From NCBI GenBank assembly GCA_046704725.1, contig JBJKRI010000003.1:93758-157757 (forward strand): a DNA stretch of 64,000 nt. The letters run 5' to 3'. The notes beneath the pieces are model-generated. The model did not search any database. It was not told the origin of the DNA and saw only the letters and a list, made by a program, of their open reading frames with translations. Shown one piece after another: positions 9,912 through 56,710 of the stretch. Position 1 is the first letter of the stretch. Every line of letters starts with the position of its first letter. A program made the position numbers and the translations under genes. The DNA comes from Candidatus Woesearchaeota archaeon. GTDB taxonomy: Archaea; Nanobdellota; Nanobdellia; Woesearchaeales; SKIA01.

Positions 9912-10120
9912 CAGCCATCTACGTAGAGATCAGGCAGTACCGTAGCGTGCTCGACAGTCAGGATACGCTCAAGAGCAAGCTCTTGGCCGCCAAGCGCGTG
10001 CTGCACGAGCTCCATGACATCCGCAACGAGGAGAACAAGGAGCTGCATCGTCTCGAGGCCCAGCTCAAGGAGATGCGCGGCCGTCTCGAGGGCGTCCGCA
10101 CGGAGTTGATGGACGAATGA
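9908..10120 (+). CDS. small coiled-coil protein
   Basis: 70 aa all-helical, ATGA overlap with upstream gene. Confidence 0.45.
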   Translation: MTAIYVEIRQYRSVLDSQDTLKSKLLAAKRVLHELHDIRNEENKELHRLEAQLKEMRGRLEGVRTELMDE

Positions 10121-10590
10121 CTGACGAACCGACCAGTTACTTCGTCGGATTGCACAAGCCGGGCAGCATGCGTAAGGACCTGCTCGAAGGAGCGAAGATC
10201 TCTGTCAACATCCTCAAATCGCAGTATCGGGTGCGCTCGTTGCGAGCGCGCAAGGTCGAGTTGCTCAGTACTCTCGCGAGCATGACGCGCGAACTATCGA
10301 CCTTGGTCGGATCCATACAGATGGACATGCCTGATCAGCAGCCTGACAAGATGCCCAAGGTTGTACGCGAATTGCAGCAACGGCGGGCCAAGGCAGCGGC
10401 GAAGGAGATGGCTGCCAAGCGGGCCGCGGCCAAGAAGGCGTCGAAGAAACCTTCGAAGAAATCCGCGAAGAAGACCCCGAAGAAGGCTGCGCCGAAGCCC
10501 ACTCCTAAACCAGCCCCTCGTCCTGTGGATGACATGGCGCATCTGGAGCAGAAGCTTGCTGACATCGAGAAGAAGCTTAATAAGCTGTGA
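10117..10590 (+). CDS. coiled-coil protein with histone-H1-like Lys/Ala/Pro-rich tail
   Basis: ATGA overlap; C-terminal AKKASKKPSKKSAKKTPKKAAPKPTPKPAP. Confidence 0.45.
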   Translation: MTDEPTSYFVGLHKPGSMRKDLLEGAKISVNILKSQYRVRSLRARKVELLSTLASMTRELSTLVGSIQMDMPDQQPDKMPKVVRELQQRRAKAAAKEMAAKRAAAKKASKKPSKKSAKKTPKKAAPKPTPKPAPRPVDDMAHLEQKLADIEKKLNKL

Positions 10591-10610
10591 GTTTTCCGTG
10601 CATTTTCCCT

Positions 10611-10713
10611 GTGGGGGTTCCCGAGTGGTCAAAGGGGCAGGACTCAAGCGTCGATTGTGACGGGGATATCCTGTAGCTGAGCGCTTTCGGGGGTTCGAAT
10701 CCCTCCCCCCACA
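10611..10713 (+). tRNA. tRNA-Leu (anticodon CAA) with 19-nt intron after position 37
   Basis: acceptor GTGGGGG/CCCCCAC, anticodon stem CAGGA/TCCTG, loop CTCAAG|intron 10649-10667|A, long variable arm, T-loop TTCGAAT, discriminator A. Confidence 0.8.
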
Positions 10714-10722
10714 TTTTTATGG
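10714..10722 (+). terminator. T-tract terminator after tRNA-Leu
   Basis: acaTTTTTAtgg immediately 3' of tRNA. Confidence 0.4.
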
Positions 10723-10724
10723 AT

Positions 10725-11765
10725 TCACGTGTTTCAGGTGTTCTCCGCCTTGAATTCGATAGATAAGTTTGCGATTTTCAGTGAAATTCTTGGATTGGTC
10801 TGATTTTCCGAATGTCGAGAATTCGTTATTCTCAGGATGCGTGCTTGAAGAATCGCATTTTTCGGATATATCTTGATTTTCGAATTATTGTGTTACAGGC
10901 TTTCAGATACGTGAATTCACTATTTCAGCCACTCAAGGGTTCTGAGCCCTTTGAGGACCTTTAAAATTATTAATTATTGCTTCTCAAAGCCTGAGGAACA
11001 TGAATTCACTCCTTTCAGCTTTCTCAATTCTGTGTGAATTCACTCATTTTTCGGACTGATCGTGCTGCTCCTCACGTGCCTGCAGCGGATCTTGCCTCTT
11101 CTGCTCGATATTCAGGTTACTGTTGGCGTTTCTGTTGTATTTTCTATATAGATATAAATATCATCTACTGAAATTGGATTCTAGAGCTACAGGCTTTGGG
11201 GGACGTGAATTGACGTGTTTACTGATTTTTTGAAATTTTCCGATTTTCTGTGATTTTCGAATTTAATTATAGCTTCTCAAAGGCTGAGGTGTACGAATTC
11301 TCGAGTTCCAATGTCTTTGAAACTGGCTGTTTTGGCTTCAGATCCCGTTCGTTTTGTGGAGTTGGATCCTTCATTTGTGCTATTTTTGGCCTCCGTCGCA
11401 CGCTCTATCTGTCGATTGTATCTTTTTTGATATTTTCTATAATGAAAATAATTGATTTTCCGCTTATTTTCGATCGATTTCTGTGTTTTTGATTCGTGCG
11501 ATATAGGCTTTGGGGGAAATGAATTCTCGAGTTTCGCTATTTTATGGTCTTAAGCTGGATATCTTGGTTTTCTGGCCACGATTCTCGCTTCCCAAAGCCC
11601 GAGGGGGATGAATTCTCGAGAATCAATGATTGAAAACTGGCTTTGTATTACCAAGTATGGAAATATCACACAAAAACCGGAAGATTTCCGGAATGCTTTA
11701 TAATAGATGGTTCCGGCGATGCTGCGATCCGACCCGAAAAATATAGAGTTAAATATTACTTAGTA
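10725..11765. repeat. AT-rich non-coding island with >=7 copies of degenerate ~25-nt motif AGGCTTTgrGGGAnnnTGAATTCnC
   Basis: ~40% GC versus ~60% flanks; no credible ORF; motif copies near 10893, 10985, 11035, 11192, 11272, 11505, 11597; also recurring gattttc and aaactggct elements. Confidence 0.6.
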
Positions 11766-11778
11766 CGACCAGATTGGT

Positions 11779-12042
11779 ATGAGAACTGTTTCTCTCAAGA
11801 TGGCGGACAGTATCCTAGATAGGATCGATGCCCACCTTGAGCGACACAACTTCACGACACGCACGGAATTCATACGGGAAGCCATCCGGGACAAGCTCCA
11901 AGAGCTCGAAAGTGATAGGTTCGAATCAGAAATCCGTAAATACTTCCGGCACCATTCTACCGAATTAGGCAAAGAAATCAACGATATCGAAAGCGACGTG
12001 TTCCGAGAGCTGGAGAACCGCTTCGGAAGACAGCGACGATAG
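11779..12042 (+). CDS. ribbon-helix-helix (CopG family) transcriptional regulator
   Basis: MADSILDRIDAHLERHNFTTRTEFIREAIRDKL RHH motif; TATA aaaatatag ~30 nt upstream. Confidence 0.65.
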   Translation: MRTVSLKMADSILDRIDAHLERHNFTTRTEFIREAIRDKLQELESDRFESEIRKYFRHHSTELGKEINDIESDVFRELENRFGRQRR

Positions 12043-20901: not shown

Positions 20902-21873
20902 CTATCGGAGCATCGCTTCGGGCACGGACACCTCTTTGTGCACGGAAAGGTGCATCTGCAGTTCGTAGTCGAGCAGTTCTTGCGCGAACGTGTCTCGCAG
21001 GTCCTGGAGCACGGTATTGAATTCCTGTCGCGTCCTCGTGTAGATGGTGAGCACGATGTTGTGCCGTCCGACCATGCGCGTGCAGTACGCGACCTCTGGC
21101 CGTGCGTTCGCCCACGCGGCCATCTTCTGTGTCGTCGCGTCGTTCATGCGTTCGAGCTGGAGCTCGACGTGGTATCCTTCGTATCCGAGGGCTTCGGGGT
21201 TGAGCAGGATGGTGTAGCTGTTGATGACGCTTCTCTCGAGCGCTTTGACGCGTTGACGGACGGTCTCAGGGGTCGTGCCGACACTCTCGGCGATATCGGT
21301 CGCTGGCGCGCGGCAGTCCTTCACGAGGATGCGCAGGATGCGCCTGTCCGTCTCATCGAGCGCTTGCGGCGTCCCGTGGAAGTGCACGATCCGCTCGGCG
21401 ACCGGCGCGTTCTTGTCGAGCAGCCCGAGCCGCGTGAACTTGTATTCTGTCGTGTACAACGAGAGGCGGTGCTCCTTGAGCGCGTCGCCCACGATATCCG
21501 TGATATCGCCGACCTGGTGGGCGAGGTCCTCGTTGCTGGTGTAGAAGACGTTGCAGGTGATGTCGAACGTGCCCGAGAGTTCCGCCACCCAGTTCGTGCG
21601 GTCGTGCGCGCAGAGCTGCGCGATGATCTCCGCGCGTCTCTGCTGCGTCGCGCCGCTGAGCTTGAGCATAACGCTCGCCACGCCTTGCGCGAACGCTCCT
21701 TGGTCGACGTGCGTGCGGTACGCGCCGATGACGCCCGCTTCCTCGCACTTTCCCATTGCGTAGCGCACCACGTCTCTGGAGACGGCGCAGCGCTTGGCGA
21801 GCGCGCTGATCGGGAGCCGCGCGTTCTCCAGCAGTGCGGCGAGGATCCGGCGGTCCTTCGCGTTTATTTCCAC
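20902..21873 (-). CDS. tandem Lrp/AsnC family transcriptional regulator (two HTH-AsnC units)
   Basis: two repeats of DRRILAALLENARLPISALAKRCAVS / DRRILRILVKDCRAPATDIAESVG HTH followed by RAM domains. Confidence 0.75.
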   Translation of the reverse strand: MEINAKDRRILAALLENARLPISALAKRCAVSRDVVRYAMGKCEEAGVIGAYRTHVDQGAFAQGVASVMLKLSGATQQRRAEIIAQLCAHDRTNWVAELSGTFDITCNVFYTSNEDLAHQVGDITDIVGDALKEHRLSLYTTEYKFTRLGLLDKNAPVAERIVHFHGTPQALDETDRRILRILVKDCRAPATDIAESVGTTPETVRQRVKALERSVINSYTILLNPEALGYEGYHVELQLERMNDATTQKMAAWANARPEVAYCTRMVGRHNIVLTIYTRTRQEFNTVLQDLRDTFAQELLDYELQMHLSVHKEVSVPEAMLR

Positions 21874-39210: not shown

Positions 39211-39771
39211 ATGCCTGTCGATTATCTCTCGCTCATCAGCAAGCACACCTCCGGCGAGGATCCCCGCACGGTCCCTGCGTTCATCATCCATTCCGCGCTC
39301 GTCACCAAGAAAGCCCTCGACGTCGCTTCCTCGTTCTTGGAGCGTCATTCCGACGCGAAGATAGACCTACGGTTGCTCGAGGAGATGGGCATGCTCCACG
39401 ACATCGGTATTTTCCGGGTCGAGGAGCCGATGCTCTTCACGCATGGCCCGCAGCCGTACCTGTCCCACCTCACCCGCGGCCGCGAGATCCTCGAGGAGGA
39501 AGGCCTTCCGGTCCATGCCCGCGCGGCCATCGCGCATTCCGGCATCCCTAAGTCGCATGTCGTGGAGAAGGAGTTGCCGCTCGAGCACGTCGATCACTTG
39601 CCCAAGACCTCGGAGGAGGAGCTGCTGTACCTGGCGGACCAGTTCTTCACCAAGCGTTTCAGCCAATTGTTCCAGGAGCGGTCGCTCGAGCAGACGCGTT
39701 CCTACGTCGAGAAGCACGGGAAGGACCGCCTTGCTTTCTTCGATTCTCTCTGGAAGAAGTGGTCGTCCTAG
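39211..39771 (+). CDS. HD-domain phosphohydrolase
   Basis: LHDIG...H...D metal-binding HD pattern. Confidence 0.55.
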   Translation: MPVDYLSLISKHTSGEDPRTVPAFIIHSALVTKKALDVASSFLERHSDAKIDLRLLEEMGMLHDIGIFRVEEPMLFTHGPQPYLSHLTRGREILEEEGLPVHARAAIAHSGIPKSHVVEKELPLEHVDHLPKTSEEELLYLADQFFTKRFSQLFQERSLEQTRSYVEKHGKDRLAFFDSLWKKWSS

Positions 39772-40451
39772 AGGTGCTTGAGGATATCTCTGAGGTCGGT
39801 CACGCTGTGGGTCGCGGCTTTCTGCAGCTCTGCGTGTCCCTTGAAGGCGAACGATAGTCCGACGTGCTTGGCGATGGCCACGTCGTTCTTGCCGTCGCCG
39901 CAGAACGCGCACTCCGCTACCTCCACATTGTATTCGTTGCGGAGCAATTCCACGAAATCCACTTTCGCGTGCAGGTCCGAGGGCAGGATGTTCCAGTACC
40001 CGATGGTTCCGTCGTCGTTCCAGAGGTGTTTCACGCTCGCGAGCGCGTGCGGGATGCGTAGCTCCTTCTGCGCTTTCCCCGCCTGTTCGAAGAAGCCTCC
40101 GCTGATGATGGCGGGCACGATTCCGCGCGCGTGCAGCCCTTCGAGCAGTTCGTGCGCTCCGTTTCCGTACGGCATCTCCTCGATGAGTTGCCGGAAGCGC
40201 GTCTTTGTCAGGCCGTATTTCTGGTGGACGTGCAGGCTCGCTTCGCACCAGTCGCCGTAGTTGCGGAAGCCCCCTTCCTCCCACTTGCGTACGAGCGCTC
40301 GGTCTTCTTCGATAGCTCCTGGCCCGAGCGCGTGCGGGATGCGCAGCCACAAGGAGTCCCCGTGCTCGGGGTCCGCTCTCGCGCTGTCCTCTCGGAACAG
40401 CGTGTTGTCCATGTCGAGGAAGAAGAGCTTGATGGTCATAGGGCGAAGCAT
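39768..40451 (-). CDS. HAD-superfamily phosphatase (phosphoserine phosphatase-like)
   Basis: LFFLDMDNTLF motif I, CGDGKNDV motif IV. Confidence 0.65.
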   Translation of the reverse strand: MLRPMTIKLFFLDMDNTLFREDSARADPEHGDSLWLRIPHALGPGAIEEDRALVRKWEEGGFRNYGDWCEASLHVHQKYGLTKTRFRQLIEEMPYGNGAHELLEGLHARGIVPAIISGGFFEQAGKAQKELRIPHALASVKHLWNDDGTIGYWNILPSDLHAKVDFVELLRNEYNVEVAECAFCGDGKNDVAIAKHVGLSFAFKGHAELQKAATHSVTDLRDILKHL

Positions 40452-40520
40452 CAGGAGGTGGTATTTACGCTTTCGGGCCGCAACCCTTTAAAAGCGGCTG
40501 GCGCTTCCGTTGCTTGTTAC

Positions 40521-40592
40521 GGCGGTTGTAGTGTAACGGTAACATGGGAGACTGTGGATCTCCAGTAGAGGGTTCGACTCCCTCCTTCCGCC
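40521..40592 (+). tRNA. tRNA-His (anticodon GTG) with G-1 and C73; acceptor stem contains two U-U mismatches
   Basis: G-1, GCGGTTG...CTTCCGC, D-arm GTGT/ACAT, anticodon stem GGAGA/TCTCC loop CTGTGGA, T-arm GAGGG TTCGACT CCCTC, discriminator C. Confidence 0.6.
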
Positions 40593-40593
40593 C

Positions 40594-41136
40594 GTGGAGA
40601 TCCATTTCCTGACGGGCAACCAGCACAAGCTCGAGGAGGCGCGCGGTATCCTGCAAGGGCATGACGTCCGTTCCATGAGGATCGACCTGCCGGAGCTCCA
40701 GAGCCTCGACCCGCAGGAGATCGTCGAGGCCAAGCTCTCCGCGGCGGACGCGCACCTCCATGGAAAGCCCTATTTCGTCGAGGACGTCTCGTTCTGGGTC
40801 GGCGACACGGGTTTTCCGGGTCCCTTATTCAAGTTCATGTATTCCGCGCTCGGCAGGGAGGGCGTCGTGCGTTTCGCGCGCGCCTTCGGCCAGGAGACCG
40901 CTCGGGCGGTCTGCACCATCGGCTTGCGGCTGCCCGGAAGGGATCCCGCGTACTTCACCGGTGAGGTCGTCGGTCGCATCGTCGATCCGCGCGGCGATTC
41001 TGGTTTCGGCTTCGACCCGATATTCGTTCCGGACGGCAGCGAGCTGACCTGGGCGGAGATGGGCTCAAAGCTCAAGAGCGAGGATAGTCATCGTTCGCGG
41101 GCGCTTGAGCAGATGGTCGCGTATCTCGGCTCTTGA
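40594..41136 (+). CDS. non-canonical purine NTP pyrophosphatase (Ham1/RdgB)
   Basis: MEIHFLTGNQHKLEEARGIL; GTG start 1 nt after tRNA-His 3' end. Confidence 0.8.
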   Translation: MEIHFLTGNQHKLEEARGILQGHDVRSMRIDLPELQSLDPQEIVEAKLSAADAHLHGKPYFVEDVSFWVGDTGFPGPLFKFMYSALGREGVVRFARAFGQETARAVCTIGLRLPGRDPAYFTGEVVGRIVDPRGDSGFGFDPIFVPDGSELTWAEMGSKLKSEDSHRSRALEQMVAYLGS

Positions 41137-41494
41137 TGATATTCTCGATCGCTTCTGAGATAGTATCGCTAAGCAGTCTGCTATCATATCTGCGTTCGCC
41201 TGCGCGATATTCCGCAACTTCTCCATGGATTACGGCATACCCCATCATAATGACTCCGATGCCGGCCCCGAACTCAGCACCTGCCGCAATAGGAAAACCG
41301 CCTGCAAGCGTGTGCGCGTGCTGAATAACTTCGGGGGTGATATGCGTCGCTGCGCTGTATAGTGCGTCCCGGATGTCATGCGCTTGCTGCAGAAATCCGT
41401 AGATTCGCGTCGTTCCATCCACTGCCAAGTATGCGCCGACACCAGCATTTATTGCTGAAGATAATACTGCTGCCTTTGAGAATAGTCTTGACAT
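41072..41494 (-). CDS. hypothetical protein
   Basis: 140-aa ORF with Gly/Ala-rich core; TATA cattaataaatg upstream; 65-nt convergent overlap with ham1. Confidence 0.3.
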   Translation of the reverse strand: MSRLFSKAAVLSSAINAGVGAYLAVDGTTRIYGFLQQAHDIRDALYSAATHITPEVIQHAHTLAGGFPIAAGAEFGAGIGVIMMGYAVIHGEVAEYRAGERRYDSRLLSDTISEAIENIIKSRDTRPSAQAPANDDYPRS

Positions 41495-41707
41495 ATTTGT
41501 GTAGACACCCCTCCATTAATAAATGTGTCTATTTTACTCACTCATAAGTAGTATTTTAAGCAATTATTTGAATCATTTGCGGCGTTGCGCCCTGTGCAAG
41601 AAATTCCATACCTTTTTAAAGCGTCTCGGATTCGCCCCGGTATCACGCCCGAGTGCAAGCGTCTGAGGGCGGCCGAAAAGGCATTTCTTGCGCTCGATAC
41701 GATACAC

Positions 41708-42148
41708 ATGGCAGAGAACGCAGACTTCAGGCACATCGTCCGCATCGCCAACACAGACTTGGCGGGCGAGAAGAAGATAGTGGACGCCCTGCGCAAGATC
41801 AAGGGCGTCAGCTTCATGTTCGCCAGCGCCGTGTGCACGGCGGCGGGCGTCGACAAGAACGGCCGCATGGGCGACATCAAGGACGCCGACATCAAGAAGC
41901 TCCAGGCGGTCCTCGAGCAGCCCGTCAGTGCGGGCATCCCCGCGTGGATGCTCAACAGGCGCAAGGACTACGAGACCGGCGCGAACAAGCACCTGGTCGT
42001 CAACGACCTCTCCTTCACGCACGACAACGACCTCAAGCGGCTCAAGAAGATCCGTTCCTACCGCGGTGTGCGCCACCAGCACGGCCTGCCCGTGCGCGGA
42101 CAGCGCACCCGCTCCAATTTCCGAAAGAACAAGGGGAAGAAGAGATAG
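41708..42148 (+). CDS. rps13: 30S ribosomal protein S13
   Basis: MAENADFRHIVRIANTDLAGEKKIVDALRKIKGV. Confidence 0.9.
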   Translation: MAENADFRHIVRIANTDLAGEKKIVDALRKIKGVSFMFASAVCTAAGVDKNGRMGDIKDADIKKLQAVLEQPVSAGIPAWMLNRRKDYETGANKHLVVNDLSFTHDNDLKRLKKIRSYRGVRHQHGLPVRGQRTRSNFRKNKGKKR

Positions 42149-43151: not shown

Positions 43152-43933
43152 ACATGGAGAAGCTCTTCGAGGACGGTAATGTGCTCGCTTTGCACATCAC
43201 GGGCGTCCTGCCCGCGTACATCAACACGCTGCGTCGTTACATGGCCAGCCGCGTGCCGACCATGGCGATCGACAGCGTGGAGTTCAAGAGCAACAACAGC
43301 ATCCTGTACGACGAGATGGTCGCGCACCGTCTCGGATTGCTCCCCCTCACCACCGACCTGGAGACCTATCGCCTTCCCAAGGAGGAATGGATCGAGCCCA
43401 CGGGCGATCCCCGCGTCGAGGTCCAGCTCTCGTTGAAGGTGCCGAAGGTCAAGTCAGAGACCGTGGTCCGCGCCAAGGATCTCTCGACCAAGGACAAGAA
43501 GATCGTGCCGGTCTACCCTGACATGCCGATCGTCAAGCTCATGGAAGGACAGGACATCGAGCTCGTCGCGACCGCTCGCCTCGGTATCGGGGAGGGGCAC
43601 GCGAAGTGGAGCCCCGGTCACGTCTGGTACCGCCATTTCCCGCATATCGCCATCAAGAAGCAGCCCAAGGACCCCAAGGCACTGGTTGAGCGCTTCCCCG
43701 GCGTGTTCGAGGTCAAGGGCGGCAAGCTCGCGCTCACCAAGGACGCCGCGTACCGGATGCCCGACATGGATATCGCCGACGACGGGATCGAGGTCTCGTT
43801 CGCCGACGACGACTACATCCTCACGGTCGAGAGTTGGGGACAGCTCACGCCCAAGGAGATAGTGAATCAAGCGTTCAGTGCGTACGACGACCAGCTCGAC
43901 GAGTTCGCCAAGCTGGTGAAGGAGATCAAATGA
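43148..43933 (+). CDS. rpoD: DNA-directed RNA polymerase subunit D (Rpo3)
   Basis: [26 protein letters not shown] dimerisation motif; ATGA overlap with S11. Confidence 0.8.
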
Positions 43934-44015
43934 GGGTGTGCCGGAGTGGTCAAACGGGCACGCTTGAGGGGCGTGTGGCTTAGTGCCTGCGAGGGTTCGA
44001 ACCCCTTCACCCTCA
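43932..44015 (+). tRNA. tRNA-Leu (anticodon GAG)
   Basis: acceptor GAGGGTG/CACCCTC, anticodon stem CACGC/GCGTG loop TTGAGGG, long variable arm, T-loop TTCGAAC, discriminator A. Confidence 0.8.
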
Positions 44016-44031
44016 GACAACGGAGACAACG

Positions 44032-56429: not shown

Positions 56430-56710
56430 AGAGGGACGAGAATGCGTGCCCGGGGGTGGACCGCGCCGGCATGCGCAGCTGACCCTGCGGGTCCCTCCCC
56501 CACGCGACCCGCGATACAGGCGTGCGGGCGCTGAGGTCTGCTCCATTCCTGGCCTGAACCGGTTCACGCCAACGCACCTCACCGAGGACGTGGGATCGAC
56601 GGTCGCCGCAGGACTGCGCGTGACGGGTATAGCCGCCCCCCGGGCTTCGGCCCCGGATGAGGACGGTTCTCCGGTGACAGGGCACGCCCGGCGCCCCAGC
56701 CTAGCAGGGG
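56430..56710 (-). ncRNA. ffs: signal recognition particle RNA (7S/SRP RNA)
   Basis: ORF-free ~72% GC block; minus-strand TATA catttataagtg (56725-56736) ~25 nt upstream; 5' region GCCCUGUCACCGGAGAACCG matches archaeal Alu-domain CUGUAACCGGAAACC; helix-8-like CAGGCCAGGAAUGGAGCAGACC matches conserved CAGGUCCGGAAGGAAGCAGC; long 5'/3' terminal complementarity. Confidence 0.55.

Follow-up and report, generated by a model that had tools for sequence, protein, structure and literature searches.

How is a protein gene expressed when its start codon lies a single base beyond the end of a tRNA, and is that tRNA, with two unpaired positions in its acceptor stem, a working gene? Both questions arise at one junction in a 64,000-nt stretch of a Candidatus Woesearchaeota archaeon genome (NCBI GenBank assembly GCA_046704725.1, contig JBJKRI010000003.1, positions 93,758 to 157,757 of the forward strand), which we call the window. 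There a tRNA-His gene is followed by ham1, encoding an ITPase or non-canonical purine NTP pyrophosphatase. The reading that we favour, and hold to be reasonably probable, is that tRNA-His is functional and tolerates its mismatches, and that ham1 is co-transcribed with it and released by tRNase Z (RNase Z) as a leaderless mRNA.

The window is archaeal, as it carries an Rfam match to archaeal signal recognition particle (SRP) RNA at 56443-56706 on the minus strand, and its GC content is about 60%. Its ribosomal protein S13 reaches no more than 68% identity with that of species-representative genomes, the closest of which are all labelled Woesearchaeota or Nanoarchaeota, and no more than 73% with any metagenomic protein. 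By these markers the host is a GC-rich, sparsely sampled, Woesearchaeota-like DPANN lineage. For comparison, 80 Woesearchaeota loci were retrieved via S13; individual loci are cited by their L numbers. The closest relatives of the window among the fetched loci are L096 and L097, with S13 proteins 73% identical to that of the window and tRNA-His genes identical to each other, and L099, with S13 at 68%; they come from other samples. The neighbouring HAD, HD, HIT and 140-aa genes, used as probes for closer relatives among the fetched loci, returned distant HIT matches only.

Anatomy and orthology of tRNA-His

ARAGORN calls tRNA-His(gtg) at 40522-40593, and Rfam model RF00005 matches 40522-40592 with 55.5 bits, well above its gathering score of 29. 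A preliminary description of this DNA had read a His identity set (GTG anticodon, G-1 and C73), and both the calls and the bases themselves bear it out. G-1 is 40521, the 5' acceptor strand GCGGTTG (positions 1-7) occupies 40522-40528, the 3' strand CTTCCGC (positions 66-72) occupies 40585-40591 and C73 is 40592. The D-loop has 7 nt, the variable loop has 4 nt and CCA is not encoded. Rfam flags two non-canonical pairs only, 5-68 and 6-67, with T opposite T in each, exactly where that description had placed them. The 7-bp acceptor stem is incompletely paired at U5-U68 and U6-U67, and the remaining stems are intact. Shifting the acceptor register by 3 nt gave no better pairing (5 of 7). The conserved U8, A14, G18 G19, U33 and T-loop TTCRA are all kept, in columns that are invariant across an alignment of 22 distinct intron-less tRNA-His genes from the S13-retrieved loci. 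Folded in isolation, the RNA still adopts the cloverleaf at its energy minimum of -21.9 kcal/mol. With both acceptor pairs restored the values are -26.9 and -26.5 kcal/mol, so the native molecule is about 5 kcal/mol weaker.

The locus is orthologous by synteny. In at least 10 of the 80 loci, tRNA-His lies directly upstream of a cluster encoding S13-S4-S11-RpoD-tRNA-Leu-L18e, and in others it lies a few kb upstream. The most window-like in gene order is L099, with DsbA(-)-HIT-HIT-HD-tRNA-His-x-S13-S4-S11-RpoD-tRNA-Leu-L18e-L13-S9. The order in the window is the same, except for a HAD gene (minus strand) before the tRNA and ham1 (plus) and a 140-aa open reading frame (ORF, minus) after it. In L096, L097 and L099 the acceptor strands are GCGGATG and CTTCCGC. 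Their 3' strand is identical to that of the window, position 5 keeps A and pairs as A5-U68, and U6-U67 is mismatched. The U6-U67 mismatch is common to the window, L096/L097 and L099 and is also present in L053, whereas the change of A5 to U5 is found only in the window genome. Read from these strands, U6-U67 is a clade trait, not decay, kept among substantially diverged members, and A5 to U5 is a newer, window-specific event.

Across the 22 aligned genes, 98.3% of the cloverleaf pair cells are standard. Only eight are non-standard, and six of these fall at 6-67 (window, L096, L099, L053) or 5-68 (window, L035). Pairs 5-68 and 6-67 otherwise covary across the set, compensatory changes occur at 15 of the 22 cloverleaf pairs, a level unmatched by any shuffled control, and G-1:C73 is present in 21 of the 22 genes. 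Fully paired relatives score 58-64 bits in Rfam, L035 scores 53.9 and L053 scores 51.4, which places the window tRNA 3-8 bits below its fully paired relatives. The 30 tRNA-Leu genes of the same loci, which come mostly from other genomes, contain no acceptor mismatches at all, a contrast that is suggestive only, as the counts are small. The tRNA-His helix probably tolerates mismatches through its 8-bp length and the five G:C pairs above them, G-1:C73 to G4:C69. The G7:C66 pair below them is kept as well. Searched for with a strict DNA pattern, the tRNA core had no match in JGI metagenomes; a looser clade pattern found only three tRNA-His genes, all fully paired.

Other tRNA-His genes among the relatives depart from the standard form in their own ways. 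That of L070 (minus-strand coordinates 10740-10825) has A at -1, T73 and an intron, and that of L085 (830-903, minus strand) places G-1 opposite T73. Introns after position 37/38 occur in several Woesearchaeota (L021, L022, L026, L051 and L070), and ARAGORN mislabels some of these genes, for example that of L051 as tRNA-Tyr(ata) and that of L026 as tRNA-???.

The ham1 start and the signals around it

The GTG at 40594-40596 is one C away from C73 of tRNA-His and is the first ATG, GTG or TTG past the in-frame TAA at 40540-40542. The Pfam family Ham1p_like (PF01725) matches residues 3-176 of the product with 116.7 bits, covering profile positions 1-185 of 186. Ten Ham1 homologues start at one common alignment column with the motif M-x-[IL]-x-F-x-TGN, and 29 columns are invariant across the window protein and these ten, including T7, G8, N9, K12, E15, E34 and D64. 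A start at the next in-frame ATG, 40675, would remove the conserved TGNxxK motif. We therefore take GTG 40594 as the true start of ham1, being the first start after the stop, two residues ahead of the Pfam match and in the homologues' common start column. The discriminator at 40592 and the start at 40594, as given in the preliminary description, stand.

How transcription and translation begin in this genome was read from the positions of TATA-like hexamers relative to the starts of ORFs with 90 or more codons. Hexamers peak 27-31 nt before ORF starts, with 34 counts as against 0-2 per flanking position. The peak comprises 28 ORF starts (about 24 of them convincing genes), several of which are GTG. 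Examples are the starts at 1281, 13440, 16674, 25428 and 52051 and the GTG starts at 21873 (minus), 37818 (plus) and 46233 (plus). Since the hexamer stands 27-31 nt before the start codon, the first genes of transcription units in this genome are, on this sequence pattern, leaderless. Operon-internal genes carry GGAGG-like Shine-Dalgarno (SD) motifs instead, as in S4, RpoD (GGGGGAGG), L18e (GGAG) and the second HIT gene (GGAGG).

ham1 belongs to neither class. No TATA-like hexamer lies 25-32 nt before 40594, in contrast to the 28 other starts that have one. There is no GGAGG-type SD motif 4-10 nt before the start and no overlap with an upstream ORF, the upstream element being the tRNA. The 16 nt before the start are CTCCCTCCTTCCGCCC, the pyrimidine-only 3' part of the tRNA. 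tRNA-His itself has a TATA box, 34 nt before G-1, that predicts a transcription start at about 40514-40519 and a 5' leader of 2-7 nt. The same 34-nt distance separates TTAATAA from the other window tRNA, at 10611. Most relatives from outside the clade of the window show, behind the tRNA-His discriminator, a C, then a T-run and then the S13 promoter (CTTTT...TTTAAATA). In the window itself, TTTTT comes after the tRNA at 10611-10713, whereas what comes after tRNA-His is the ham1 reading frame, with no T-run. The tRNA thus lies directly 5' of the ham1 start, on the same strand, with a 1-nt spacer and no T-run or TATA in between.

The position of ham1 appears to be derived. The five homologues nearest to it (54-60% identity) lie inside operons and overlap the ORF before them by 4 nt, and none has a tRNA upstream in the available sequence. 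Where the flank suffices, their context is CDC48-PKD-hypothetical-Ham1-hypothetical-GatD, a cluster that is absent from the window. From this we conclude that the place of ham1 after tRNA-His is derived, and it is unique in current data.

Weighing the tRNA and the expression route

Two other readings of the tRNA were weighed. The preliminary description had raised a sequence error as a source of the U-U oppositions, and beyond their unusual nature nothing speaks for one. Two separate base errors would be required, and an independent Logan assembly (run SRR31309759, L001) is 100% identical over 301 nt covering the tRNA and the junction. The relatives L096, L097 and L099, sampled elsewhere, carry the same 3' strand and the same U6-U67. 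We regard an error as very improbable. A decaying or redundant copy, with a canonical tRNA-His elsewhere doing the decoding, has somewhat more in its favour, namely two uncompensated mismatches in one stem, an Rfam score a few bits under those of fully paired relatives and a view confined to 64 kb of the genome. Within that window ARAGORN and Rfam find no other tRNA-His, and DPANN-size genomes usually hold one tRNA-His gene. The locus is orthologous and syntenic, one of the two mismatches recurs in L096, L097, L099 and L053, the remaining stems and conserved loop positions are intact, and a TATA box stands at the distance typical of tRNA genes. A degenerate or pseudo-tRNA, which the preliminary description had also entertained, is unlikely. 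The best explanation of these sequence data is that the locus is the organism's functional, orthologous tRNA-His gene, neither a pseudogene nor an error.

Since ham1 lacks both TATA and SD and the tRNA has no T-run behind it, expression of ham1 is best explained by a transcript that starts at the tRNA promoter and covers both. On this route ham1 would have relocated from an operon-internal site to sit one base behind the tRNA, where most relatives outside the clade have an oligo-T terminator. The TATA box of tRNA-His would drive a precursor that contains tRNA and mRNA together. A tRNase Z cut after C73 would give an mRNA beginning C-GUG, or GUG if the cut fell one base later and left C74. With a leader of 0-1 nt, the resulting mRNA would be equivalent to the leaderless mRNAs that dominate the genome, and a translation system adapted to leaderless messages would use it. 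Cleavage at the discriminator should be needed in any case, since CCA is not encoded. That RNase Z would leave a leaderless ham1 mRNA had been proposed in the preliminary description. The division of the genome's genes between TATA and SD signals, the absence of both from ham1 and the missing T-run give the proposal strong indirect support; the cut itself we infer, placing it by the known behaviour of archaeal tRNase Z.

The precursor can fold in another way. A perfect 10-nt inverted repeat joins the anticodon arm to the start of ham1 (Table 1), and such 10-nt complementarity to the tRNA occurs in about 1 in 1000 (0.1%) of 30-nt windows of this sequence. RNAfold puts this helix in the place of the cloverleaf when the precursor is folded to its minimum free energy. 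Its advantage is 4-6 kcal/mol, or 2-4 kcal/mol with the acceptor repaired, so the mismatches shift the balance by about 2 kcal/mol towards the helix. The E2 and H4 codons that create the repeat are specific to this genome; homologues have K, R or N at residue 2 and L or T at residue 4. These features raise the possibility of a switch, in which the precursor would alternate between a cloverleaf, processed and with ham1 translatable, and a 10-11-bp helix, unprocessed and with the start hidden. The output of ham1 would then be coupled to tRNA-His maturation, and the doubly mismatched acceptor would be what enables bistability. We find both the alternation and the coupling unlikely. The repeat was noticed post hoc, the precursor folds have overall z-scores near 0, and the cloverleaf is expected to form first in co-transcriptional folding. 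Energies of tRNAs are poorly modelled without tertiary contacts and modifications, and the repeat comes from one lineage, with no second one for covariation. If true, the switch would be a case of tRNA maturation gating a nucleotide-pool sanitising enzyme, that is, of regulated tRNA punctuation in a prokaryote. A separate 28-nt hairpin at 40590-40617 (GCCCGUGGAGA-UCCA-UUUCC-UG-ACGGGC; -13.4 kcal/mol, z = -2.8) covers the last tRNA bases, the GUG start and ham1 codons 2-8.

The more serious competitor, clearly less probable than the tRNase Z route and still to be reckoned with, is that ham1 needs no cut. It would be translated from the unprocessed precursor by SD-independent internal initiation of the haloarchaeal type, or from a primary leaderless transcript of an unrecognised non-TATA promoter in the tRNA gene. 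SD-less initiation on leadered mRNAs does occur in haloarchaea, and the junction sequence cannot separate the routes. An own promoter would have to do without the hexamer that the 28 other starts possess. In the uncut precursor the start codon, without an SD motif, would lie one base from the acceptor helix, and a working tRNA requires an endonucleolytic 3' cut at this very junction. Several points do weigh against release by tRNase Z. The arrangement is known from one lineage, so conservation is unable to support it. L096 and L099 likewise have no clear T-run after tRNA-His, and a missing terminator is therefore not specific to the ham1 junction. (In L099 a TATA-like TTATAC precedes the called start of the gene after tRNA-His by about 26 nt.) The tRNA gene may contain a weak promoter of a non-TATA kind. 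No tRNase Z was identified in the window, and the two acceptor mismatches could slow the enzyme, as might the predicted fold that prefers the anticodon arm-ham1 helix to the cloverleaf. The cleaved mRNA would bear a 5'-monophosphate as well as a GUG start, which would probably lower its stability or efficiency.

Known parallels and neighbouring features

The closest parallel to the tRNase Z route is mitochondrial tRNA punctuation, reportedly described by Ojala, Montoya and Attardi in 1981, in which RNase P and ELAC2/RNase Z are said to free leaderless mitochondrial mRNAs. In both cases a tRNA abuts the next start codon, the coding region has neither a promoter nor a ribosome-binding site of its own, 3' processing of the tRNA makes, or here would make, a leaderless 5' end, and translation already uses leaderless mRNAs. 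Unlike the mitochondrial scheme, which is polycistronic and genome-wide, the present case is one junction in an archaeal chromosome of the free-living type; the 3' end of ham1 is not defined by a tRNA, and the processing is our proposal. The mismatched stems recall tRNAs of mitochondria and reduced symbionts, with non-Watson-Crick oppositions in an essential, probably single-copy tRNA of a small, probably host-associated genome. Here, in contrast, they are confined to a single tRNA species, at two neighbouring pairs of its acceptor, and diverged relatives have kept one of the two.

Archaeal precedents exist for the first two steps of the proposed route, co-transcription and the cut. In Thermococcus kodakarensis, tRNA-Lys (TKt03) lies inside the 159-nt 5' untranslated region of TK0306 and shares one promoter with it, as determined by differential RNA sequencing (dRNA-seq; PMC4247193). 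As proposed here, an archaeal tRNA and a downstream protein gene are expressed from one promoter, although the mRNA there has a long leader, whereas here the spacer is 1 base and the product is expected to be leaderless. In Nanoarchaeum equitans, of the same broad DPANN/Nanoarchaeota lineage, RNase Z makes the 5' end of a C/D small RNA (sRNA) from a tRNA-sRNA dicistron (PMC3491384). As on the proposed route, the 3' cut of the tRNA there makes the 5' end of the downstream RNA, but the partner is a small non-coding RNA and not an mRNA that needs a new 5' end for translation. A keyword search of open-access text for a prokaryotic leaderless mRNA made by RNase Z, which is no proof of absence, returned only examples from mitochondria and plants, tRNA-sRNA dicistrons and the co-transcript of T. 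kodakarensis. Co-transcription of tRNAs with mRNAs or sRNAs is thus already known, and what is new is this single-genome variant.

If 5' ends confirm the route, it would be a case of chromosomal archaeal tRNA 3' processing creating a translatable leaderless mRNA, a mitochondrial logic arisen independently in DPANN. A relocated gene would then have gained expression by docking onto a tRNA unit where ribosomes already prefer leaderless mRNAs. U6-U67, kept across diverged Woesearchaeota and doubled here, points to a dispensable pairing spot in the 8-bp acceptor helix of tRNA-His, which bears on how the stem is read by RNase P, tRNase Z and histidyl-tRNA synthetase (HisRS). The practical lesson for annotation is that tRNAs of this kind are not to be marked as pseudogenes and that gene callers ought to allow a start codon that follows a tRNA by one base.

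Table 1. Positions of the tRNA-His and ham1 elements and of other features in the window.
Feature	Position	Strand	Basis
TATA box TTTAAAA of the tRNA-His unit	40487..40493	+	Sequence; first base 34 nt before G-1
tRNA-His(GUG), G-1 to discriminator C73	40521..40592	+	ARAGORN, Rfam, synteny with L099 and L096
U5 and U6, 5' side of the tandem U-U mismatch	40526..40527	+	Rfam pair flags, alignment
tRNA arm of the 10-nt perfect inverted repeat, TGGATCTCCA, U35-A44 (anticodon loop and 3' strand of anticodon stem)	40555..40564	+	Repeat search
U67 and U68, 3' side of the tandem U-U mismatch	40586..40587	+	Rfam pair flags, alignment
Spacer C, gap between discriminator and start codon	40593..40593	+	Sequence
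ham1 (ITPase / non-canonical purine NTP pyrophosphatase), 180 aa, GTG start	40594..41136	+	ORF list, Pfam PF01725
ham1 arm of the inverted repeat, TGGAGATCCA, coding nucleotides 2-11, including two start-codon bases	40595..40604	+	Repeat search, RNAfold
HAD-family hydrolase, divergent	39768..40439	-	ORF list, Pfam HAD families
140-aa ORF, convergent, no Pfam match	41072..41494	-	ORF list; TATA box 29 nt upstream
Ribosomal protein S13, first of the S13-S4-S11-RpoD-tRNA-Leu-L18e-L13 cluster	41708..42148	+	ORF list, Pfam
tRNA-Leu(GAG)	43931-44016		ARAGORN
Intron-containing tRNA with long variable arm, probably tRNA-Leu(CAA)	10611-10713		Rfam 42.7 bits; missed by ARAGORN

The divergent HAD gene has a likely leaderless start at ATG 40439 (MTIKLFFLDMDN...), with TAAATA at 40467-40462, 28 nt upstream. 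The convergent 140-aa ORF overlaps the last 65 nt of ham1, and the gene caller used on the Logan contig did not call it. For S13 (ATG 41708), a TATA-like TTTTAA at about 41554 predicts a transcription start near 41585 and a leader of about 125 nt, unlike most window genes. The tRNA at 10611-10713 lies at the edge of a low-GC (47%) stretch, 10001-12000. The SRP RNA match scores 98.5 bits, barely above the Rfam threshold of 96.5, and relative to the model it is without a 40-nt stretch and the 5'/3' closing helix. No match to RNase P RNA above the Rfam threshold occurs in the 64-kb window; in relatives the archaeal RNase P RNA lies a few kb from tRNA-His (L035 4058-4335, L005 7285-7670, L087 7926-8285).

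A second tRNA of the window also sits among protein genes. tRNA-Leu(GAG) overlaps the RpoD stop codon (43931-43933) and ends 15 nt before the L18e ATG with its GGAG. It resembles the proposed tRNA-His unit in being a tRNA co-transcribed with protein genes across short spacers. The difference is that L18e keeps its SD motif, 5 nt before the ATG, and that its place after the tRNA is an ancient, conserved feature; the ham1 junction belongs to one lineage only. Since tRNA-Leu followed by L18e recurs in about 30 related loci, with spacers of 9-20 nt in many, tRNAs embedded in mRNAs are, judging by gene order, routine in this clade. In L086 a tRNA-His gene at 1592-1664 is followed by no T-run and, after about 12 nt, by the ATG of an ORF of 425 codons, and may represent a second tRNA-mRNA co-transcript, with a short leader.

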